Positions 1 through 29,921 of a DNA stretch of 64,000 nt are shown here, one piece after another. The stretch lies in assembly GCF_045037415.1 (NCBI RefSeq), contig NZ_CP173438.1; one strand, written 5' to 3'. The DNA is from Escherichia coli. Lineage in GTDB: Bacteria; Pseudomonadota; Gammaproteobacteria; Enterobacterales; Enterobacteriaceae. The notes below the pieces were generated by a model. That model was not told the DNA's origin and searched no databases. It saw only the letters and a list, made by a program, of their open reading frames with translations. The number at the start of each line of letters is the position of its first letter. The first letter of the stretch is position 1. The position numbers were made by a program, and so were the translations under genes.

Positions 1-1281
1 ATTATGGTGGTGACAATCGGGTTAAGTTTCCTTGATTTCACCCTCGCCTTTACGCTGGGCGGCATTATGTTACTGACGCTTTTCCTGATGCCACCACTGT
101 TTTATCGTGCGGGAAAAAGCACCGGGCAAAATCTGACTCATCTTCGCGGGCAGTATCGCCAACAACTGACGGCCTGGCTGCAAGGGCAAGCTGAGCTGAC
201 CATTTTTGGTGCCAGCGATCGTTATCGCACGCAATTAGAGAATACAGAAATTCAATGGCTGGAAGCGCAACGCCGTCAATCTGAACTAACCGCATTGTCG
301 CAAGCGATAATGCTGCTCATTGGCGCGTTAGCGGTGATCCTGATGCTGTGGATGGCGTCTGGCGGCGTTGGCGGCAATGCTCAACCCGGCGCGTTAATTG
401 CCCTGTTTGTCTTCTGCGCGTTAGCCGCGTTTGAAGCGCTGGCACCAGTAACGGGTGCATTTCAGCATCTGGGGCAAGTCATTGCCTCTGCCGTACGGAT
501 CACTGATTTAACGGATCAAAAACCGAAAGTCACCTTCCCTGATACCCAAACTCGTGTTGCCGATCGCGTTTCGCTGACATTACGGGATGTTCAGTTCACT
601 TATCCGGAGCAATCCCAACAGGCACTTAAAGGGATTTATCTTCAGGTAAACGCCGGGGAACATATTGCGATTCTCGGGCGAACCGGATGCGGCAAGTCAA
701 CACTGTTACAACTGCTGACCCGCGCATGGGACCCGCAACAGGGCGAGATTTTGCTTAACGATAGTCCCATAGCCAGCCTGAATGAAGCGGCTCTACGACA
801 GACCATCAGCGTTGTTCCCCAGCGAGTGCATCTGTTTAGCGCCACGCTGCGTGATAATCTGTTACTCGCCTCGCCTGGTAGTAGTGATGAGGCTCTGGCG
901 GAGATCTTGCGTCGCGTTGGTCTGGAGAAGCTGCTCGAGGATGCAGGTCTCAACAGTTGGTTAGGTGAAGGCGGACGCCAGCTCTCCGGTGGTGAACTGC
1001 GCCGTCTGGCTATCGCCCGTGCGCTGTTACATGATGCGCCGCTGGTATTGCTGGATGAACCTACAGAAGGCTTAGATGCCACAACCGAAAGTCAGATCCT
1101 TGAATTGCTTGCAGAAATGATGTGCGAGAAAACGGTGTTAATGGTCACCCATCGACTTCGCGGGCTCTCTCGTTTCCAACAAATAATAGTGATGGACAAC
1201 GGGCAAATTATTGAGCAAGGTACTCACGCAGAACTGCTTGCCAGACAGGGGCGTTATTACCAGTTTAAGCAGGGTTTGTAA
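1..1281 (+). CDS. cydC: Cysteine/glutathione ABC exporter subunit CydC, 5'-truncated by window edge (C-terminal ~425 aa present)
   Basis: ORF 4..1281 stays open in frame to position 1; Walker A GRTGCGKST, ABC signature LSGGE, Walker B LLDEPT; followed by aat and infA as in E. coli. Confidence 0.9.
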   Translation: MMVVTIGLSFLDFTLAFTLGGIMLLTLFLMPPLFYRAGKSTGQNLTHLRGQYRQQLTAWLQGQAELTIFGASDRYRTQLENTEIQWLEAQRRQSELTALSQAIMLLIGALAVILMLWMASGGVGGNAQPGALIALFVFCALAAFEALAPVTGAFQHLGQVIASAVRITDLTDQKPKVTFPDTQTRVADRVSLTLRDVQFTYPEQSQQALKGIYLQVNAGEHIAILGRTGCGKSTLLQLLTRAWDPQQGEILLNDSPIASLNEAALRQTISVVPQRVHLFSATLRDNLLLASPGSSDEALAEILRRVGLEKLLEDAGLNSWLGEGGRQLSGGELRRLAIARALLHDAPLVLLDEPTEGLDATTESQILELLAEMMCEKTVLMVTHRLRGLSRFQQIIVMDNGQIIEQGTHAELLARQGRYYQFKQGL

Positions 1282-1322
1282 GCTATTATTGAACGATCCG
1301 ACTTGCGTGGAGTTTTGCGGTC

Positions 1323-2027
1323 ATGCGCCTGGTTCAGCTTTCTCGCCATTCAATAGCCTTCCCTTCCCCGGAAGGCGCATTACGTGAGCCTAACGGCCTG
1401 CTGGCACTGGGGGGCGATCTTAGCCCTGCGCGCCTATTAATGGCTTATCAGCGTGGTATTTTCCCGTGGTTTTCTCCTGGCGACCCCATCCTCTGGTGGT
1501 CGCCCGATCCCCGCGCGGTGTTATGGCCAGAATCACTGCATATCAGCCGTAGTATGAAGCGATTTCATAAACGCTCACCCTATCGTGTCACGATGAATTA
1601 CGCTTTTGGTCAGGTCATCGAAGGCTGTGCCAGCGATCGCGAAGAAGGAACCTGGATCACGCGTGGCGTGGTCGAAGCCTACCATCGCCTTCACGAACTC
1701 GGTCATGCCCACTCCATTGAAGTCTGGCGTGAAGATGAGCTTGTCGGCGGTATGTACGGCGTGGCCCAGGGAACACTATTTTGTGGCGAGTCCATGTTCA
1801 GCCGGATGGAAAATGCGTCCAAAACGGCGCTTCTGGTCTTCTGTGATGAATTTATCCGTCATGGCGGTAAACTTATCGACTGCCAGGTCCTTAACGATCA
1901 CACAGCATCGCTTGGTGCCTGCGAAATTCCCCGCCGGGATTACCTTAATTATCTCAATCAAATGCGCCTCGGACGATTGTCGAATAATTTCTGGGTACCT
2001 CGATGCTTGTTTTCACCACAAGAATGA
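1323..2027 (+). CDS. aat: Leucyl/phenylalanyl-tRNA--protein transferase
   Basis: 234-aa ORF recognised as Aat; conserved position between cydC and infA. Confidence 0.9.
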
Positions 2028-2308
2028 ATGTTTTCGGCACATTTCTCCCCAGAGTGTTATAATTGCGGTCGCAGAGTTGGTTACGCTCATTACCCCGCTG
2101 CCGATAAGGAATTTTTCGCGTCAGGTAACGCCCATCGTTTATCTCACCGCTCCCTTATACGTTGCGCTTTTGGTGCGGCTTAGCCGTGTGTTTTCGGAGT
2201 AATGTGCCGAACCTGTTTGTTGCGATTTAGCGCGCAAATCTTTACTTATTTACAGAACTTCGGCATTATCTTGCCGGTTCAAATTACGGTAGTGATACCC
2301 CAGAGGAT

Positions 2309-2530
<222 letters not shown>

Positions 2531-2568
2531 TTGTTTTACCGCCTGATGGGCGAAGAGAAAGAATGAGT

Positions 2569-2598
2569 AAAAGGTCGGTTTAGCCGGCCTTTTTATTT
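2569..2598 (+). terminator. Putative rho-independent terminator of infA
   Basis: Stem aaaaggucgg/ccggccuuuu (one U-G wobble) with 5-nt loop, followed by a T-run (ctttttatttt). Confidence 0.5.
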
Positions 2599-2713
2599 TG
2601 TGATATGTATGGAGTACTTTAGAAGTATAAGTCCGTAACTTGTCTCGATGTAGATATACTGCACAACTTGTTTACAGTATGAGCAAACAATAATTATCAT
2701 AAAAATTCTTCTT

Positions 2714-2783: not shown

Positions 2784-2871
2784 GGTGAGGTGTCCGAGTG
2801 GCTGAAGGAGCACGCCTGGAAAGTGTGTATACGGCAACGTATCGGGGGTTCGAATCCCCCCCTCACCGCCA
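2784..2871 (+). tRNA. serW: tRNA-Ser (anticodon GGA), class II tRNA with long variable arm, 88 nt, CCA encoded
   Basis: Acceptor stem GGTGAGG/CCTCACC, anticodon loop CTGGAAA (GGA), T-arm GGGGG-TTCGAAT-CCCCC, discriminator G plus CCA. Confidence 0.92.
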
Positions 2872-24206: not shown

Positions 24207-24722
24207 ATGCGCTATAGCAAATTGACCATGCTTATCCCTTGCGCACTGCTACTCAGTGCCTGTACCACCGTCACGCCAGCTTATAAAGATAACGGCCCCC
24301 GCACCGGTTCCTGTGTCCAGGGGGGGCCTGATAGTGTGGCTCAACAGTTCTATGACTACCGCATTCAACATCGCAGCAATGACATTACCGCTCTGCGCCC
24401 CTATTTGAGTGACAAACTGGCAACCCTACTTAGCGATGCCAGCCGCGATAATAGTCATCGTGAATTGTTAAGCAGCGATCCGTTCTCCAGTCGAACCACC
24501 TTGCCAGACAGCGCCCACGTAGCCAGTGCATCGACTATCCCTAATCGTGATGCCCGTAACATTCCATTGCGCGTGGATCTCAAGCAGGGTGACCAGGGCT
24601 GGCAGGATGAAGTGTTAATGATTCAGGAAGGCCAGTGTTGGGTCATCGACGATGTGCGCTACTTAGGCGGTAGCGTTCATGCCACGGCGGGTACGCTCCG
24701 TCAATCCATCGAGAATCGCTAA
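24207..24722 (+). CDS. ybjP: Putative lipoprotein YbjP
   Basis: ORF 24183..24722; N-terminus MRYSKLTMLIPCALLLSAC (lipobox) at ATG 24207. Confidence 0.8.
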   Translation: MRYSKLTMLIPCALLLSACTTVTPAYKDNGPRTGSCVQGGPDSVAQQFYDYRIQHRSNDITALRPYLSDKLATLLSDASRDNSHRELLSSDPFSSRTTLPDSAHVASASTIPNRDARNIPLRVDLKQGDQGWQDEVLMIQEGQCWVIDDVRYLGGSVHATAGTLRQSIENR

Positions 24723-24939
24723 CGTCTTGATCAACCAATAAACCCCGTAAATTGTCCGGCATTTCGTGAGGAATGCCGACATTTATGCTCGCCGACCACC
24801 GCCCCCGTTATTTTGTGCTATGTTTATTGAATAATGCGCTTTGCTTTTAACTTTTAAAGCAGAAATATTGCATAATTATTCTGTCAAAGGTACTATCTTC
24901 GACCTCAATAGCTATCAGACTGCCAGTATACGAGTGTCA

Positions 24940-25668
24940 ATGAGTATTCAATTAAACGGCATTAATTGCTTCTACGGCGCGCATCAGGCGCTGTTCGATA
25001 TCACGCTGGATTGCCCGCAGGGCGAAACGCTGGTGTTACTTGGCCCCAGCGGCGCGGGTAAAAGCTCGCTGCTGCGTGTACTCAATCTGCTTGAGATGCC
25101 GCGCTCCGGTACGCTCAACATTGCAGGCAACCATTTCGATTTCACCAAAACCCCCTCTGACAAAGCGATTCGCGATTTGCGTCGTAACGTTGGCATGGTG
25201 TTTCAGCAATACAACCTGTGGCCGCATCTGACCGTGCAGCAAAACCTGATTGAAGCGCCCTGCCGTGTACTGGGGCTGAGTAAAGATCAGGCGCTGGCCC
25301 GTGCAGAAAAACTGCTGGAACGTCTGCGTCTTAAACCTTATAGCGATCGTTACCCGCTGCATCTTTCTGGTGGTCAGCAGCAGCGTGTTGCTATTGCCCG
25401 TGCGTTGATGATGGAACCGCAGGTACTGCTGTTCGATGAACCGACCGCCGCACTGGACCCCGAAATTACGGCACAAATCGTCAGCATCATTCGTGAGCTG
25501 GCAGAAACGAATATTACCCAGGTGATCGTCACCCACGAAGTTGAAGTGGCGCGTAAAACCGCCAGCCGAGTGGTGTATATGGAAAACGGTCATATCGTAG
25601 AACAAGGCGACGCGAGCTGCTTTACCGAGCCGCAAACCGAAGCATTTAAAAACTATCTCTCTCACTAA
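24940..25668 (+). CDS. artP: Arginine ABC transporter ATP-binding protein ArtP (242 aa)
   Basis: ORF 24841..25668; N-terminus [13 protein letters not shown] at ATG 24940; Walker [10 protein letters not shown], signature LSGGQQQR. Confidence 0.92.
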
Positions 25669-25685
25669 GATTCGGGATAACAACA

Positions 25686-26417
25686 ATGAAAAAAGTTCTG
25701 ATTGCCGCGTTAATTGCAGGTTTTAGTCTTTCCGCCACAGCAGCCGAAACCATTCGTTTTGCCACCGAAGCCTCCTATCCTCCGTTTGAATCGATTGATG
25801 CAAACAACCAGATCGTTGGTTTTGATGTCGACCTGGCGCAGGCATTGTGTAAAGAGATTGATGCAACCTGCACTTTCTCTAACCAGGCGTTTGACAGCCT
25901 GATCCCAAGCCTGAAATTCCGTCGCGTAGAAGCAGTGATGGCGGGCATGGATATCACTCCGGAGCGTGAAAAGCAGGTGCTGTTTACCACCCCGTACTAT
26001 GACAACTCTGCCCTGTTTGTGGGTCAGCAAGGCAAATACACCAGTGTTGATCAGCTGAAAGGCAAAAAAGTTGGCGTTCAGAACGGGACGACACACCAGA
26101 AGTTCATTATGGATAAGCATCCGGAAATCACTACCGTGCCATATGACAGTTACCAGAACGCAAAACTGGATCTGCAAAACGGTCGTATCGACAGCGTATT
26201 TGGTGACACCGCAGTGGTAACTGAATGGCTGAAAGATAACCCGAAACTGGCGGCAGTGGGCGATAAAGTGACCGATAAAGATTACTTCGGTACTGGCCTC
26301 GGCATCGCAGTACGCCAGGGCAACACTGAACTGCAGCAGAAATTCAACACTGCGCTGGAAAAAGTGAAGAAAGATGGCACTTACGAAACCATCTACAACA
26401 AATGGTTCCAGAAGTAA
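25686..26417 (+). CDS. artI: Arginine-binding periplasmic protein ArtI
   Basis: 243-aa ORF with signal peptide; paralogous to ArtJ downstream. Confidence 0.9.
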   Translation: MKKVLIAALIAGFSLSATAAETIRFATEASYPPFESIDANNQIVGFDVDLAQALCKEIDATCTFSNQAFDSLIPSLKFRRVEAVMAGMDITPEREKQVLFTTPYYDNSALFVGQQGKYTSVDQLKGKKVGVQNGTTHQKFIMDKHPEITTVPYDSYQNAKLDLQNGRIDSVFGDTAVVTEWLKDNPKLAAVGDKVTDKDYFGTGLGIAVRQGNTELQQKFNTALEKVKKDGTYETIYNKWFQK

Positions 26418-26423
26418 TTCCTG

Positions 26424-27140
26424 ATGAATGAATTTTTTCCTTTAGCAAGCGCCGCCGGGATGACCGTCGGCCTTGCCGTTTGTGCATTGATTGTCGGGCT
26501 GGCGCTGGCGATGTTCTTTGCGGTATGGGAGTCTGCGAAATGGCGTCCTGTCGCGTGGGCAGGTTCAGCGCTGGTAACCATTCTGCGTGGCCTGCCAGAA
26601 ATTCTGGTGGTGCTGTTTATCTATTTTGGCTCCTCGCAGCTGCTGCTGACGCTTTCGGATGGCTTCACTATCAATCTTGGGTTCGTGCAGATCCCGGTGC
26701 AGATGGACATTGAGAACTTCGACGTTAGCCCGTTCCTTTGTGGTGTCATCGCTCTGTCACTGCTGTATGCCGCCTATGCCTCGCAAACGCTGCGTGGTGC
26801 ATTAAAAGCGGTGCCGGTGGGGCAGTGGGAATCCGGTCAGGCGCTGGGGCTGTCGAAATCGGCTATCTTTTTCCGTCTGGTGATGCCGCAGATGTGGCGT
26901 CATGCGCTGCCGGGTCTCGGTAACCAGTGGCTGGTGCTGCTGAAAGATACCGCGCTGGTCAGTTTGATTAGTGTGAATGATTTAATGCTACAAACCAAAA
27001 GCATCGCTACCCGTACCCAGGAACCGTTTACCTGGTACATTGTGGCGGCGGCGATTTACCTGGTGATCACCCTGCTCAGTCAGTACATTCTCAAACGCAT
27101 TGACCTGCGCGCGACACGTTTTGAGCGGAGGCCCAGCTAA
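26424..27140 (+). CDS. artQ: Arginine ABC transporter permease ArtQ
   Basis: 238-aa polytopic permease ORF in the art operon. Confidence 0.9.
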
Positions 27141-27808
27141 TGTTTGAGTATTTACCCGAACTGATGAAAGGGCTGCACACCAGCCTGACGCTAACCGTTG
27201 CCTCGCTGATTGTGGCACTGATTCTGGCATTGATTTTTACCATCATCCTGACGCTGAAAACGCCGGTGCTGGTGTGGCTGGTACGGGGCTATATCACGCT
27301 GTTTACCGGTACGCCGCTGCTGGTGCAGATCTTCCTGATTTATTACGGGCCGGGCCAGTTCCCGACGTTGCAGGAGTATCCGGCACTGTGGCATTTGTTG
27401 TCAGAACCGTGGTTATGTGCGCTGATTGCGTTGTCGCTGAACAGTGCGGCGTACACCACGCAGCTGTTTTACGGTGCGATTCGCGCGATCCCGGAAGGTC
27501 AATGGCAGTCCTGTAGCGCCCTGGGAATGAGCAAAAAAGATACGCTGGCGATCCTGCTGCCGTACGCGTTTAAACGCTCGCTCTCTTCTTATTCCAACGA
27601 AGTGGTGCTGGTGTTCAAAAGTACCTCTCTGGCTTACACCATTACGCTCATGGAAGTGATGGGATACAGCCAGTTGTTGTACGGACGCACCTACGATGTA
27701 ATGGTATTTGGCGCGGCGGGGATTATTTACCTGGTCGTCAACGGCCTGCTGACGCTGATGATGCGTCTGATCGAGCGTAAAGCACTGGCATTCGAACGGC
27801 GGAATTAA
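27140..27808 (+). CDS. artM: Arginine ABC transporter permease ArtM
   Basis: 222-aa permease; start overlaps the artQ stop. Confidence 0.9.
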   Translation: MFEYLPELMKGLHTSLTLTVASLIVALILALIFTIILTLKTPVLVWLVRGYITLFTGTPLLVQIFLIYYGPGQFPTLQEYPALWHLLSEPWLCALIALSLNSAAYTTQLFYGAIRAIPEGQWQSCSALGMSKKDTLAILLPYAFKRSLSSYSNEVVLVFKSTSLAYTITLMEVMGYSQLLYGRTYDVMVFGAAGIIYLVVNGLLTLMMRLIERKALAFERRN

Positions 27809-27821
27809 TGTAGCTGCATGC

Positions 27822-27860
27822 TGATGCCGGATGCGGCGTGGACGCCTTATCCGGCCTACA
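27822..27860. repeat. REP (repetitive extragenic palindromic) element
   Basis: tgatgccggatgcggcgtggacgccttatccggcctaca matches the canonical E. coli REP consensus; lies just after the artM stop. Confidence 0.75.
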
Positions 27861-27883
27861 TAGTGCATAAATTCTTATTATGA

Positions 27884-27918
27884 AGACGGACAACCCACTA
27901 AGCTGTCCGTCTTTTTTT
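27884..27918 (+). terminator. Rho-independent terminator of artPIQM
   Basis: Stem gacggaca/tgtccgtc followed by a T7 run. Confidence 0.6.
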
Positions 27919-27920
27919 AT

Positions 27921-27965
27921 TTCATATAAATTATTTACTCATATTTATTGCATATAAATTCACTT
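27921..27965. promoter_or_regulatory. Putative ArgR operator (ARG boxes) upstream of artJ
   Basis: ttgcatataaattcactt (27948-27965) resembles the ARG box wnTGAATwwwwATTCAnw; a weaker adjacent box is upstream; art genes are known ArgR targets. Confidence 0.35.
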
Positions 27966-28033
27966 AATGGCATTGTTATCCCATGCCGCAGACACGGCCA
28001 AAAATCATAAGATTGACAGACGGGAGTTCCATC

Positions 28034-28765
28034 ATGAAAAAGTTAGTTCTTGCCGCTTTACTTGCTTCTTTTACTTTCGGTGCTTCTGCCGCAGAGAAAA
28101 TCAATTTTGGCGTTTCAGCCACCTATCCACCCTTTGAATCTATAGGTGCTAATAATGAGATTGTCGGCTTTGATATCGACCTGGCAAAAGCCTTGTGCAA
28201 ACAAATGCAGGCAGAATGTACTTTTACTAATCACGCTTTCGACAGCCTGATCCCGTCACTGAAATTCAGAAAATATGACGCCGTAATCTCCGGAATGGAT
28301 ATCACGCCGGAGCGTAGCAAACAGGTATCGTTTACCACGCCCTACTACGAAAACTCAGCCGTCGTGATTGCCAAAAAAGATACCTACAAAACGTTTGCCG
28401 ATCTGAAAGGCAAACGTATTGGGATGGAAAACGGCACCACGCACCAGAAATATATTCAGGATCAGCACCCGGAAGTGAAAACTGTCTCCTATGACAGTTA
28501 TCAGAATGCCTTTATCGATCTGAAAAATGGCCGTATTGATGGCGTATTTGGTGACACCGCAGTGGTAAACGAATGGCTGAAAACCAATCCGCAACTGGGC
28601 GTTGCTACTGAAAAAGTGACCGATCCGCAATACTTCGGCACCGGCCTGGGTATCGCTGTACGTCCGGATAACAAAGCTCTGCTGGAAAAACTGAATAACG
28701 CGCTGGCAGCAATTAAAGCTGACGGTACATATCAGAAAATCAATGACCAGTGGTTCCCACAGTAA
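28034..28765 (+). CDS. artJ: Arginine-binding periplasmic protein ArtJ (243 aa)
   Basis: ORF 27983..28765; N-terminus MKKLVLAALLASFTFGASA at ATG 28034 with RBS gggag. Confidence 0.92.
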   Translation: MKKLVLAALLASFTFGASAAEKINFGVSATYPPFESIGANNEIVGFDIDLAKALCKQMQAECTFTNHAFDSLIPSLKFRKYDAVISGMDITPERSKQVSFTTPYYENSAVVIAKKDTYKTFADLKGKRIGMENGTTHQKYIQDQHPEVKTVSYDSYQNAFIDLKNGRIDGVFGDTAVVNEWLKTNPQLGVATEKVTDPQYFGTGLGIAVRPDNKALLEKLNNALAAIKADGTYQKINDQWFPQ

Positions 28766-28772
28766 GATTCAG

Positions 28773-28797
28773 AAAGCCGCACCTGCGGCTTTTTTAT
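28773..28797. terminator. Bidirectional terminator hairpin between convergent artJ and rlmC
   Basis: Stem aaagccgca/tgcggcttt followed by a T-run; overlaps the rlmC stop codon. Confidence 0.55.
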
Positions 28798-29921
28798 TGC
28801 TTCACCAGTAGCGTCAGCACTTCATAGTGCGCGGTGTGCGGGAACATATCAAAAAGCTGTACCCGTTCGATGCGATAACCAGGCAGTTCGCGGATATCTT
28901 TCGCCATAGTTTGGGCGTTACAGCTGGAGTAGATAATAAAACGCGGTGCCATCGTTGAGAGATAATCACACAGCGGTTTACCGATGCCGCGGCGCGGCGG
29001 GTTAACCAGCACCAGCTCCGGCACTTCCCCCTGAGCGGTGGCAAACTGCGTAGAGTCCAGCGCCTGAAATTGCAAACGCGTTAAGCCCAGTTCAGCGGCT
29101 GACTGCTTCGCACAGGCAATGGCCTCTGGTGCAATTTCGATCCCGGTTAACTGCATGTCAGGCGTCGCGCAGTGTAAACCAAAGCCACCCACACCGCAGA
29201 ACAGATCCCACATATGTTTAACCGGCAGCTGTCGTACCCAGTCGCGCGCGGTGGCGTACAGCTGGCTGGCGACCGCCGGATTAGTCTGGAAGAAACTTTG
29301 CGGACGGATCCACAGCGGTACGTCATTAAAACGCTCTGCCAGTGCCTGTTGTTCGGTCAGGTAGATCTCCGTCTCCCCTTCCATAATCGCCATATGTACC
29401 GGCTGAATATTGACGGTAATAACTTTCAGCTGCGGTAATTGTTCCTGTAACCACGGCAGCGCCTTACGCAATTGCGCCAGTTTGGTATCAGAACGCAGTA
29501 CAAAACGCAGCATCATGCCACCATCGCTCTGGCTTTCAGTCAGCAGAATGTATTTCAGTTCACCACGTTTACGCGCCACGTTGTAGGGCGTTAACCCCGC
29601 ACGGGCGATAAACGGTTTTAGCGCCGCAAAAACGGGCGCAAATGAGGCTGGATAAAGCGGGCAGTCACAAAGGTCTTCCGGTGTACCATCTCGATGCAGC
29701 ATACCGAGCAGTGGTTTTTCAACGCTACCACTCACCACCATTTTGGCTTTATTACGAAACCCTTGTTCCGGGCCTGACACCGGCGCACACCATTCCTCAA
29801 CCGGAAAATCGGCGAGCAGATTTTTAAGATCGGCAGTTTTAGCGGAGAGTTGCTCTGGAATCGGCTGCGTTATCCACTGACAGGAACGACAGCGACCCGC
29901 GTCGTAAAGTGCGCACTGCAT
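28794..29921 (-). CDS. rlmC: 23S rRNA (uracil747-C5)-methyltransferase RlmC
   Basis: 375-aa ORF; N-terminal Cys cluster ([14 protein letters not shown]) and SAM methyltransferase fold. Confidence 0.9.

Follow-up and report, generated by a model that had tools for sequence, protein, structure and literature searches.

The locus at positions 24500-29500 of the 64,000-nt stretch of E. coli DNA analysed here (in the following called the window) is with near certainty the artPIQM–artJ arginine-import cluster on the E. coli chromosome. Complete E. coli chromosomes that carry the annotation artP/artI/artQ/artM/artJ match it with 100% identity, and 5424 of 5426 genomes contain the locus. No evidence contradicting this identification was found in our analysis. 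The locus is a textbook case of one ABC transporter whose two binding proteins, products of a duplication, are regulated differently. This arrangement is ordinary, well studied and previously described, and finding it again adds nothing new. The sequence-only reading had judged it in the same way, as duplicated binding proteins under separate transcriptional control but not novel; indeed it is already laid out in PMC6640053, citing Wissenbach (1995) and Caldara (2007). Papers disagree on the ligand of ArtI, which differs from ArtJ by three pocket substitutions that are fixed per orthologue group.

All features described in the following lie on the plus strand unless stated otherwise. artP (24940-25668) encodes the ATP-binding subunit according to annotation and the NCBIfam equivalog NF008338 (502.7 bits, cut-off 369). 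It is followed by artI (25686-26417), the gene of the periplasmic substrate-binding protein inside the operon (ArtI_Ecoli, NF041764, 538.2 bits, cut-off 522), and by the permease genes artQ (26424-27140; NF008337, 468 bits, cut-off 277) and artM (27140-27808; NF008336, 423.6 bits, cut-off 248), whose start overlaps the artQ stop. artJ (28034-28765) is monocistronic and encodes the arginine-specific periplasmic binding protein (ArtJ_Ecoli, NF041765, 534.5 bits, cut-off 510). Thus all five proteins score above their own equivalog cut-offs. The genes of artPIQM are contiguous on a single strand with gaps of 5-17 bp or overlaps. Moreover, the gene set of a type I ABC importer ArtQMP2 is complete, with one nucleotide-binding and two permease subunits next to a binding protein. 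The open reading frame list and the RefSeq annotation of an E. coli record with identical sequence place the artI ATG at 25686 and the final base of the artJ stop codon at 28765. A longer artJ reading frame from the in-frame ATG at 27983 was rejected in favour of the annotated start at 28034, since a GGGAG Shine-Dalgarno motif (28022-26) that is invariant in five genera lies 7 nt upstream of the latter, the signal peptide begins there, and 27983 approximately coincides with the presumed transcription start. Prophage-like genes at the start of the SK1144 record were discarded as well, as they lie outside the window, of which positions 1-2646 are the cydC-aat-infA core.

The closest known system is artPIQM-artJ of K-12 (b0864-b0860), described as the 'third periplasmic arginine transport system' (Wissenbach 1995; Caldara 2007; Torres Montaguth 2019, PMC6640053). 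Genes, gene order, proteins, ARG-box pairs, terminator stem and artJ leader are the same. The two loci can be aligned nearly nucleotide by nucleotide over their coding and control regions, and the differences are at strain level only.

ArgR operators were searched in the whole 64-kb window with the pattern WNTGAATWWWWATTCANW, 3 bp, WNTGAATWWWWATTCANW, whereby mismatches were summed over the two 18-bp boxes. The best site in the window is located upstream of artJ (27926-27964; ARG boxes 27926-27943 and 27947-27964, 4+1 mismatches), the second best upstream of artP (24846-24884; ARG boxes 24846-24863 and 24867-24884, 4+2 mismatches). All other two-box sites have at least 9 mismatches. Among 100 simulated windows (first-order Markov) the best scores were 7-11, and a sum of 6 or less was reached in none (0/100). 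As controls, the operators of carAB P2 and argECBH were recovered as top matches with a sum of 4 each. These classical operators likewise consist of two 18-bp ARG boxes with a 3-bp spacer and overlap the promoter (sums 4 and 4 versus 5 and 6). In contrast to them, the promoter-distal box 1 is markedly degenerate at both artP and artJ (4 mismatches), and of the promoter elements only the -35 is overlapped. The hisJ operator is weaker in the same scan (sum 8) and lies further upstream than those of the art genes. In four other genera the artJ operator is again the top-scoring site, and the artJ ATG follows 58-71 bp downstream in each. At artP, five genera show no variation in box 2 or in the 3' half of box 1. 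Salmonella, Pluralibacter and Cronobacter keep both operators. For Jejubacter the scan ranks the artJ operator first and the artP box sequence aligns, yet the artP pair is not among the three best matches of the locus. Binding of ArgR and Lrp at the artP operator has been reported (PMC6640053), and ArgR binding with arginine-dependent repression at artJ and artP is attributed to Caldara 2007 and Cho 2011/2015 in PMC6640053. According to the same paper, ArgR represses both promoters and Lrp only that of artP. The ARG boxes that the sequence-only reading suspected upstream of artJ, and whose presence at artP it left to a scan, are thus present at both genes.

For artP we infer a sigma-70 promoter at 24868-24896 with the -35 hexamer TTGCAT (24868-24873), a 17-bp spacer, the -10 hexamer TACTAT (24891-24896) and a transcription start around 24905. 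The candidate TTAACT-18-CATAAT, suggested by a generic promoter scan, was rejected for three reasons: TACTAT is invariant in five genera, the presumed start places a block of 76% G+C (24789-24809) at -116 to -96, which matches the landmark in PMC6640053, and the overlap of ARG box and -35 fits. The artJ promoter presumably lies at 27948-27976, with TTGCAT (27948-27953), a 17-bp spacer including the TG of an extended -10, and CATTGT (27971-27976). Here the motif TGGCA..GT is invariant in five genera. TGGCA could be taken for the -24 element of a sigma-54 promoter; this was rejected because no GC/TTGC is found at the spacing of a -12 element and the bases after TGGCA are not conserved, and an extended -10 (TGn and CATTGT) fits instead. 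The generic promoter scan found neither of the two putative promoters, whose hexamers are weak (TTGCAT 3/6; CATTGT 3/6 plus extended TG). At both genes the putative -35 TTGCAT sits within ARG box 2, consistent with the overlap of ARG boxes and -35 described in PMC6640053, and the -10 elements are conserved in five genera. Hence artJ appears to have its own ARG-box-bearing promoter, as had been claimed, with the operator at 27926-27964 downstream of the preceding terminator, while artI is located inside artPIQM.

That terminator, at 27885-27918, consists of an 8-bp G+C-rich stem extendable to 11 bp (GACGGACA/TGTCCGTC at 27885-27892 / 27904-27911), an 11-nt loop and a stretch of seven T. It folds at -15.2 kcal/mol (z = -5.7), and none of 200 shuffled sequences was as stable. 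A simple terminator scan did not list it, because the scan permits loops of 3-8 nt only and the loop is longer than typical. The same stem occurs in K-12 and Salmonella with differing loops. The fold prediction thus agrees with the strong terminator that had been proposed between artM and artJ. Downstream, the terminator scan yields a hairpin common to the convergent genes artJ and rlmC (28771-28799; -14.3 kcal/mol on the plus and -12.5 on the minus strand), which is likely a bidirectional terminator. Upstream of the cluster, Rfam CRISPR-DR53 gives a match at 24752-24788 with an E-value of 0.12. A CRISPR was rejected, as this is a lone hairpin after ybjP and no repeat array is found.

From these elements the locus would work as follows. 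It encodes a type I ABC importer for arginine whose membrane channel is made of ArtQ and ArtM, and ATP is hydrolysed by a pair of ArtP subunits. The artP promoter would drive artI together with the transporter genes, and the resulting transcript would run through a REP hairpin in the 3' untranslated region to its end at the intrinsic terminator. artJ would form a separate transcription unit downstream with its own sigma-70 promoter. As a pair of ARG boxes is predicted to overlap the -35 hexamer at both promoters, arginine-loaded hexameric ArgR would keep RNA polymerase off the DNA at high arginine levels. At the artP promoter, Lrp acts as a second repressor and competes with ArgR (PMC6640053). 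[quoted passage not shown]

ArtI and ArtJ are clearly paralogous, in line with the sequence-only reading, and both peptides it cited occur in their translations. The pairwise alignment is gap-free with 154 of 241 identical residues (64%), 80% positives and an E-value of 1e-123. On the DNA level artI and artJ are 68% identical, at third codon positions only 47%, and no identical run exceeds 27 nt. These values indicate an old duplication, and a search for recent gene conversion between the two genes found none. Moreover, ArtI and ArtJ of one genome are 63-65% identical in each of five genera while orthologues share 81-95%, which dates the duplication before the divergence of these genera. Each stays below the cut-off of the other's model (ArtI 393.6 bits against NF041765, cut-off 510; ArtJ 385.7 bits against NF041764, cut-off 522), and both are members of the Pfam family SBP_bac_3 (PF00497, polar amino acid type; ArtI 139.5 and ArtJ 145.9 bits, gathering cut-off 26.4). 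Judged by eye only, the N-termini MKKVLIAALIAGFSLSATA/AE and MKKLVLAALLASFTFGASA/AE show the basic start, hydrophobic core and A-x-A of signal peptides. In family 3 binding proteins a conserved Arg and a conserved Asp hold the alpha-carboxylate and alpha-amino groups of the ligand. R94 and D174 align with R77 and D161 of LAO in ArtI, ArtJ and all orthologues examined.

The sequence-only reading called both proteins arginine-binding. For ArtJ this stands, with a Kd of 0.4 uM for L-arginine (PMC6640053). For ArtI it goes beyond the evidence: the K-12 RefSeq annotation names it only a 'putative ABC transporter periplasmic binding protein', and the papers are contradictory. Arginine and ornithine are given as ligands of ArtI in PMC6640053 and PMC8050422, whereas Wissenbach (1995), as read by PMC2228313, ascribes to ArtI no specific arginine binding, with arginine bound no better than other amino acids. 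At the pocket-equivalent positions ArtI has E28, A86 and Q132, ArtJ S28, S86 and E132. Each set is fixed within its orthologue group across five genera, and E28, A86 and Q132 are kept in 117-120 of 121 ArtI-type sequences. Two explanations have to be weighed. Either both proteins are redundant arginine binders and the subfunctionalisation is purely regulatory, with artJ under strong ArgR control and artI under weaker, Lrp-modulated control. Or ArtI has diverged in its ligand preference, e.g. towards ornithine or another basic compound, such that one transporter serves two specificities as is the case for HisJ/ArgT with HisQMP2, the precedent named in PMC6640053. Redundancy fits a set of residues identical in ArtI and ArtJ, namely those contacting the alpha-carboxylate and alpha-amino groups of the ligand and those between which its side chain is sandwiched (Y31, F69, R94, T135, T136, H137, D174), and also the shared E35. 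It is also in line with the papers giving arginine as ligand of both (PMC6640053, PMC8050422) and with the documented difference in repressibility between the artP and artJ promoters (PMC6640053). The three fixed substitutions argue against it. Position 132 in particular corresponds to the glutamate forming the salt bridge to the guanidinium group in the arginine-specific Tv2483, mutation of which raises the Kd about 5000-fold (bioRxiv 10.1101/350942). As the unspecific binding cited in PMC2228313 and the persisting 'putative' in the K-12 annotation point the same way, we regard redundancy as possible but rather doubtful.

For a divergence in ligand preference, which is predicted from the alignment, we consider the chances to be about even. 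The acidic residue is relocated, E28/Q132 in ArtI versus S28/E132 in ArtJ and in the arginine-specific Salmonella protein STM4351, and the change is fixed, with near-complete retention of E28, A86 and Q132 in ArtI-type sequences. In LAO, a protein of broad specificity, the equivalent of position 28 is D and that of 132 is L. The literature, too, would be consistent with a changed preference, be it arginine plus ornithine (PMC6640053, PMC8050422) or, in PMC2228313, no common amino acid. On the other side, the pocket positions were set by alignment to LAO and STM4351 and not by a structure of ArtI. Moreover, ArgBP of Thermotoga binds arginine with nanomolar affinity by a Gln hydrogen bond to the guanidinium group (PMC4022495), so that Gln132 need not abolish arginine binding. 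A stronger version of divergence, namely that ArtI is not a second arginine binder and that the relocated acid marks a distinct ligand (ornithine or a basic metabolite) imported via ArtQMP2, is tentative, and we would sooner doubt than expect it. If true, it would resolve a conflict of thirty years between an arginine/ornithine binder and a protein with no specific binding.

STM4351 (PDB 2Y7I) is the closest solved structure, with E-values of 1e-93 to ArtJ and 3e-81 to ArtI. It is a third paralogue outside the art locus, 59% identical to ArtJ and 53% to ArtI, and combines S28 and E132 of the ArtJ type with the A at 86 of ArtI. The argT-hisJQMP system of E. coli and Salmonella resembles the art locus in having two SBP_bac_3 paralogues (LAO and HisJ, 67% identical) for one ABC membrane complex, likewise with one binding-protein gene in the operon, one transcribed alone, and differing regulation. 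Across the two systems the binding proteins share only 36-40% of their residues (ArtI and ArtJ versus HisJ and ArgT). Unlike artJ, the separately transcribed argT has a sigma-54/NtrC promoter and no ArgR control.

Downstream of the artM stop codon and ahead of the terminator, in the 3' untranslated region of artPIQM, lies a single REP element (27826-27859; GCCGGATGCGGCGTGGACGCCTTATCCGGCCTAC), an extragenic imperfect palindrome with a hairpin of -21.3 kcal/mol. We assigned to this class imperfect palindromes of ~35 nt with the arms GCCGGATG...CTTATCCGGCCTAC, extragenic position and dispersed copies; the element has these arms, is extragenic and has a related copy in another spacer, the REP in the artJ-rlmC spacer of K-12, to which it is identical in 35 of 37 positions. 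The canonical REP claimed between artM and artJ is therefore real. Rfam naRNA4, a REP-derived family, gives a partial match below the gathering score (37 bits, E 5.5e-4). The conserved 3' arm has exactly one copy in the window. A K-12 query bearing related REPs produced at least 40 matching pieces per record in 3865 records. Megablast with the 41-nt REP alone found the orthologous copy only, with a median of one place per genome, and is too insensitive for diverged copies.

REP hairpins protect upstream mRNA against 3' exonucleases. The position in the transcribed 3' untranslated region before the terminator, the stable hairpin and this general protection could mean that the REP has a function in the separate control of the two units, be it as insulator, as stabiliser of the artPIQM mRNA or as binding site for artJ regulation. 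We consider this very improbable, since the copy number varies within E. coli, with one REP here and an extra inverted REP in K-12 and in 3410 of 5426 complete genomes. Furthermore, the element is absent in Pluralibacter and replaced by unrelated species-specific repeats in Cronobacter and by a hicAB cassette in Jejubacter, and all three keep the arrangement of terminator and ARG boxes. In our view the REP stands outside the conserved control elements and is a variable passenger that is probably dispensable, although it may stabilise the mRNA from its 3' end. The spacers of artJ also account for differences to K-12: that between artM and artJ is 66 bp shorter here, with one REP and not two, and the window is without a 170-bp insertion of two REPs between artJ and rlmC. 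The two spacers flanking artJ are hot spots of REP/BIME gain or loss, while the block of terminator, operator and promoter stays intact. In one genus, Jejubacter, a spacer flanking artJ has also received a toxin-antitoxin cassette (hicAB, between artM and artJ).

Several complete chromosomes of E. coli match the stretch 24500-29500 at 100% identity, and 5424/5426 complete E. coli genomes contain the art locus. Gene coordinates were taken from the RefSeq annotation of an identical E. coli record: ybjP (24207-24722), artP (24940-25668), artI (25686-26417), artQ (26424-27140), artM (27140-27808), artJ (28034-28765) and the convergent rlmC (28794-29921). By the annotated coordinates of artI and artJ, the span 25686-28765 marked in the sequence-only reading therefore begins precisely at the start codon of artI and ends at the stop codon of artJ.

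All five art products score above the curated cut-offs of their own NCBIfam equivalog models (ArtP 502.7 bits, cut-off 369 bits; ArtI 538.2, 522; ArtQ 468, 277; ArtM 423.6, 248; ArtJ 534.5, 510). ArtI on the ArtJ model and ArtJ on the ArtI model both stay well under the NCBIfam cut-off, hence the two are separable orthologue groups. Both carry the Pfam domain SBP_bac_3. Their proposed paralogy is borne out by 64% identity over 241 residues (gap-free, E 1e-123), and both peptides quoted for it occur in the translations. At the DNA level artI and artJ are 68% identical, but third codon positions agree at only 47%, and no identical run exceeds 27 nt. On these figures the duplication is old, and nothing in them points to recent gene conversion. 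We compared art loci from four further genera (Salmonella, Pluralibacter, Cronobacter and Jejubacter). The gene order ybjP-artPIQM-artJ is kept in 4/4; ArtI and ArtJ of one genome share 63-65% identity, the orthologues 81-95% with the E. coli proteins. The duplication is older than the split of E. coli and the four compared genera.

The artM-artJ spacer (27809-28033, 225 bp) contains, from 5’ to 3’, a REP, a terminator, ARG boxes, a -10-like motif and a Shine-Dalgarno sequence (GGGAG, 28022-28026, 7 nt upstream of the ATG). The REP and the strong terminator postulated between the two genes are thus both present. The REP (27826-27859, GCCGGATGCGGCGTGGACGCCTTATCCGGCCTAC) folds at -21.3 kcal/mol, is 35/37 identical to a REP in another spacer of K-12 and gives a sub-threshold Rfam match to the REP-derived naRNA4 family; its arm occurs only once in the 64-kb window. 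The artM terminator (27885-27918) consists of a stem GACGGACA/TGTCCGTC that can be lengthened to 11 bp, an 11-nt loop and seven T. Its folding energy is -15.2 kcal/mol (z = -5.7; 0/200 shuffles equally stable); it is not bidirectional and was missed by a generic scan only because of the loop limit of the latter.

The whole window was scanned for ARG boxes as pairs of the palindromic consensus WNTGAATWWWWATTCANW with 3-bp spacing. The best site lies, as anticipated from the sequence, upstream of artJ (27926-27964, ATAAATTATTTACTCATA ttt ATTGCATATAAATTCACT, 4+1 mismatches), the second best upstream of artP (24846-24884, 4+2 mismatches). All remaining candidates have at least 9 mismatches. Of 100 windows simulated with a first-order Markov model none reached 6, their best scores lying between 7 and 11. 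In K-12 control regions the carAB P2 and argECBH operators came out on top with 4 mismatches each, and the hisJ operator, known to be weaker, was recovered at 8. In 4/4 other genera the artJ site, which precedes the artJ ATG by 58-71 bp, is the top score of each 9.7-kb locus; the artP site ranks second in 3/4. In alignments ARG box 2 is almost invariant at both promoters, and the -10 TACTAT at artP and the motif TGGCA..GT at artJ are invariant. The putative artP promoter combines a -35 TTGCAT (24868-73) with a -10 TACTAT (24891-96), the putative artJ promoter a -35 TTGCAT (27948-53) with the extended -10-like motif TGgCATTGT (27968-27976). The former places a 76% G+C block (24789-24809) at -116 to -96, exactly the position given by Torres Montaguth et al. 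(PMC6640053). Around the predicted artP transcript start, a CTCAAT(A/T)GCTAT block (24904-24915) is conserved in five genera. Hfq/SdsR control of Salmonella artPIQM is mentioned in the literature.

According to PMC6640053, artJ and artPIQM are distinct sigma-70 transcription units, and arginine-bound hexameric ArgR binds a canonical ARG-box pair at each art promoter. RNA polymerase is kept off PartJ by ArgR through steric hindrance; PartP is repressed about three-fold by Lrp in competition with ArgR, PartJ being unaffected. This published record therefore supports the interpretation as duplicated binding proteins under separate control, including the remark that it is not novel: the art system is already known and the observation is confirmed.

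K-12 differs from the window by an extra inverted REP after artM and a 170-bp BIME after artJ, both absent here. The extra REP sits on a 66-bp insertion in the artM-artJ spacer of the K-12 comparison locus (L002), at junction 27817/27818 within window 27809-27825. A query spanning this insertion reaches at least 80% coverage in 3410/5426 complete E. coli genomes, so the one-REP form of the window is the minority allele. The artM-artJ spacer holds two diverged REP-like units in Salmonella, no REP in Pluralibacter, a repeat type of its own in Cronobacter and a hicA-hicB cassette in Jejubacter. In all four, artM is followed by a terminator, and the ARG-box/promoter block sits immediately before artJ. 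By this comparison the REP is not part of the conserved design. It is best regarded as a passenger tolerated by a permissive spacer, and it may stabilise the mRNA slightly. In Jejubacter calystegiae the hicA/hicB toxin-antitoxin pair lies at L009:6791-7434, the ARG boxes and promoter still being directly upstream of artJ despite it; this is the best ARG-box pair among all examined loci (1+2 mismatches).

The artJ-rlmC spacer is a short allele in the window (28766-28793, 28 bp) with a single shared terminator hairpin (28771-28794) between the convergent genes, which folds on both strands. K-12 (L002:2668-2837) and 1704/5426 genomes carry the two-REP BIME at this place, flanked by two diverged copies of the hairpin, AAGCCGCAnnnGCGGCTT. 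The long allele could be an insertion duplicating the hairpin, or the short allele a deletion between the repeats. The Jejubacter spacer is likewise short.

On the ligand of ArtI the sources disagree. The K-12 RefSeq name is ‘putative ABC transporter periplasmic binding protein’. PMC2228313 takes Wissenbach 1995 to mean that the affinity of ArtI for arginine is an order of magnitude below that of ArtJ and no higher than for other amino acids, whereas PMC6640053 and PMC8050422 state arginine and ornithine. We aligned ArtI and ArtJ with HisJ and ArgT of E. coli and with the Salmonella arginine-specific binding protein STM4351 (PDB 2Y7I), the closest solved structure to both. Among the equivalents of LAO contacts, Y31, F69, G87, D89, R94, T135, T136, H137 and D174 are the same in ArtI and ArtJ. 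Positions 28, 86 and 132 differ, being E, A and Q in ArtI (codons 25767-25769, 25941-25943, 26079-26081), S, S and E in ArtJ (28115-28117, 28289-28291, 28427-28429), S, A and E in STM4351 and D, S and L in LAO. At these three positions each orthologue group is uniform across 5/5 genera; they are three of 28 such fixed differences. E28, A86 and Q132 are kept in 117-120/121 ArtI-type sequences. Position 132 aligns with LAO L117 and with E128 of the arginine-specific Tv2483, which holds the guanidinium by a bidentate salt bridge and whose mutation raised the Kd about 5000-fold (bioRxiv 10.1101/350942). Thermotoga ArgBP, in contrast, contacts the guanidinium through a hydrogen-bonding Gln and has nanomolar affinity for arginine (PMC4022495). 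Hence the substitutions suggest, rather than prove, an altered specificity of ArtI.

Minus-strand ORFs across the art locus appear to be antisense shadows of the art genes, and the single minus-strand promoter-like match in the AT-rich operator region is at chance level (4 found, 4.9 expected). Directly after the ybjP stop codon lies a stable hairpin (24752-24788, GTCCGGCATTTCGTGAGGAATGCCGAC). Its Rfam match to CRISPR-DR53 is at chance level (E 0.12) and was rejected; it is probably the ybjP terminator, though its T tract is weak. From 2647 onwards the window differs from strain SK1144 (NZ_AP018784.2), whose annotation supplied the gene coordinates, by only four bases in all. SK1144 has prophage-like genes, a Mor-family activator and others, beside tRNA-Ser (window 2784-2871), whereas window 1-2646 is the cydC-aat-infA core. 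The tRNA-Ser gene is therefore an integration site, filled in SK1144 and empty in the window.
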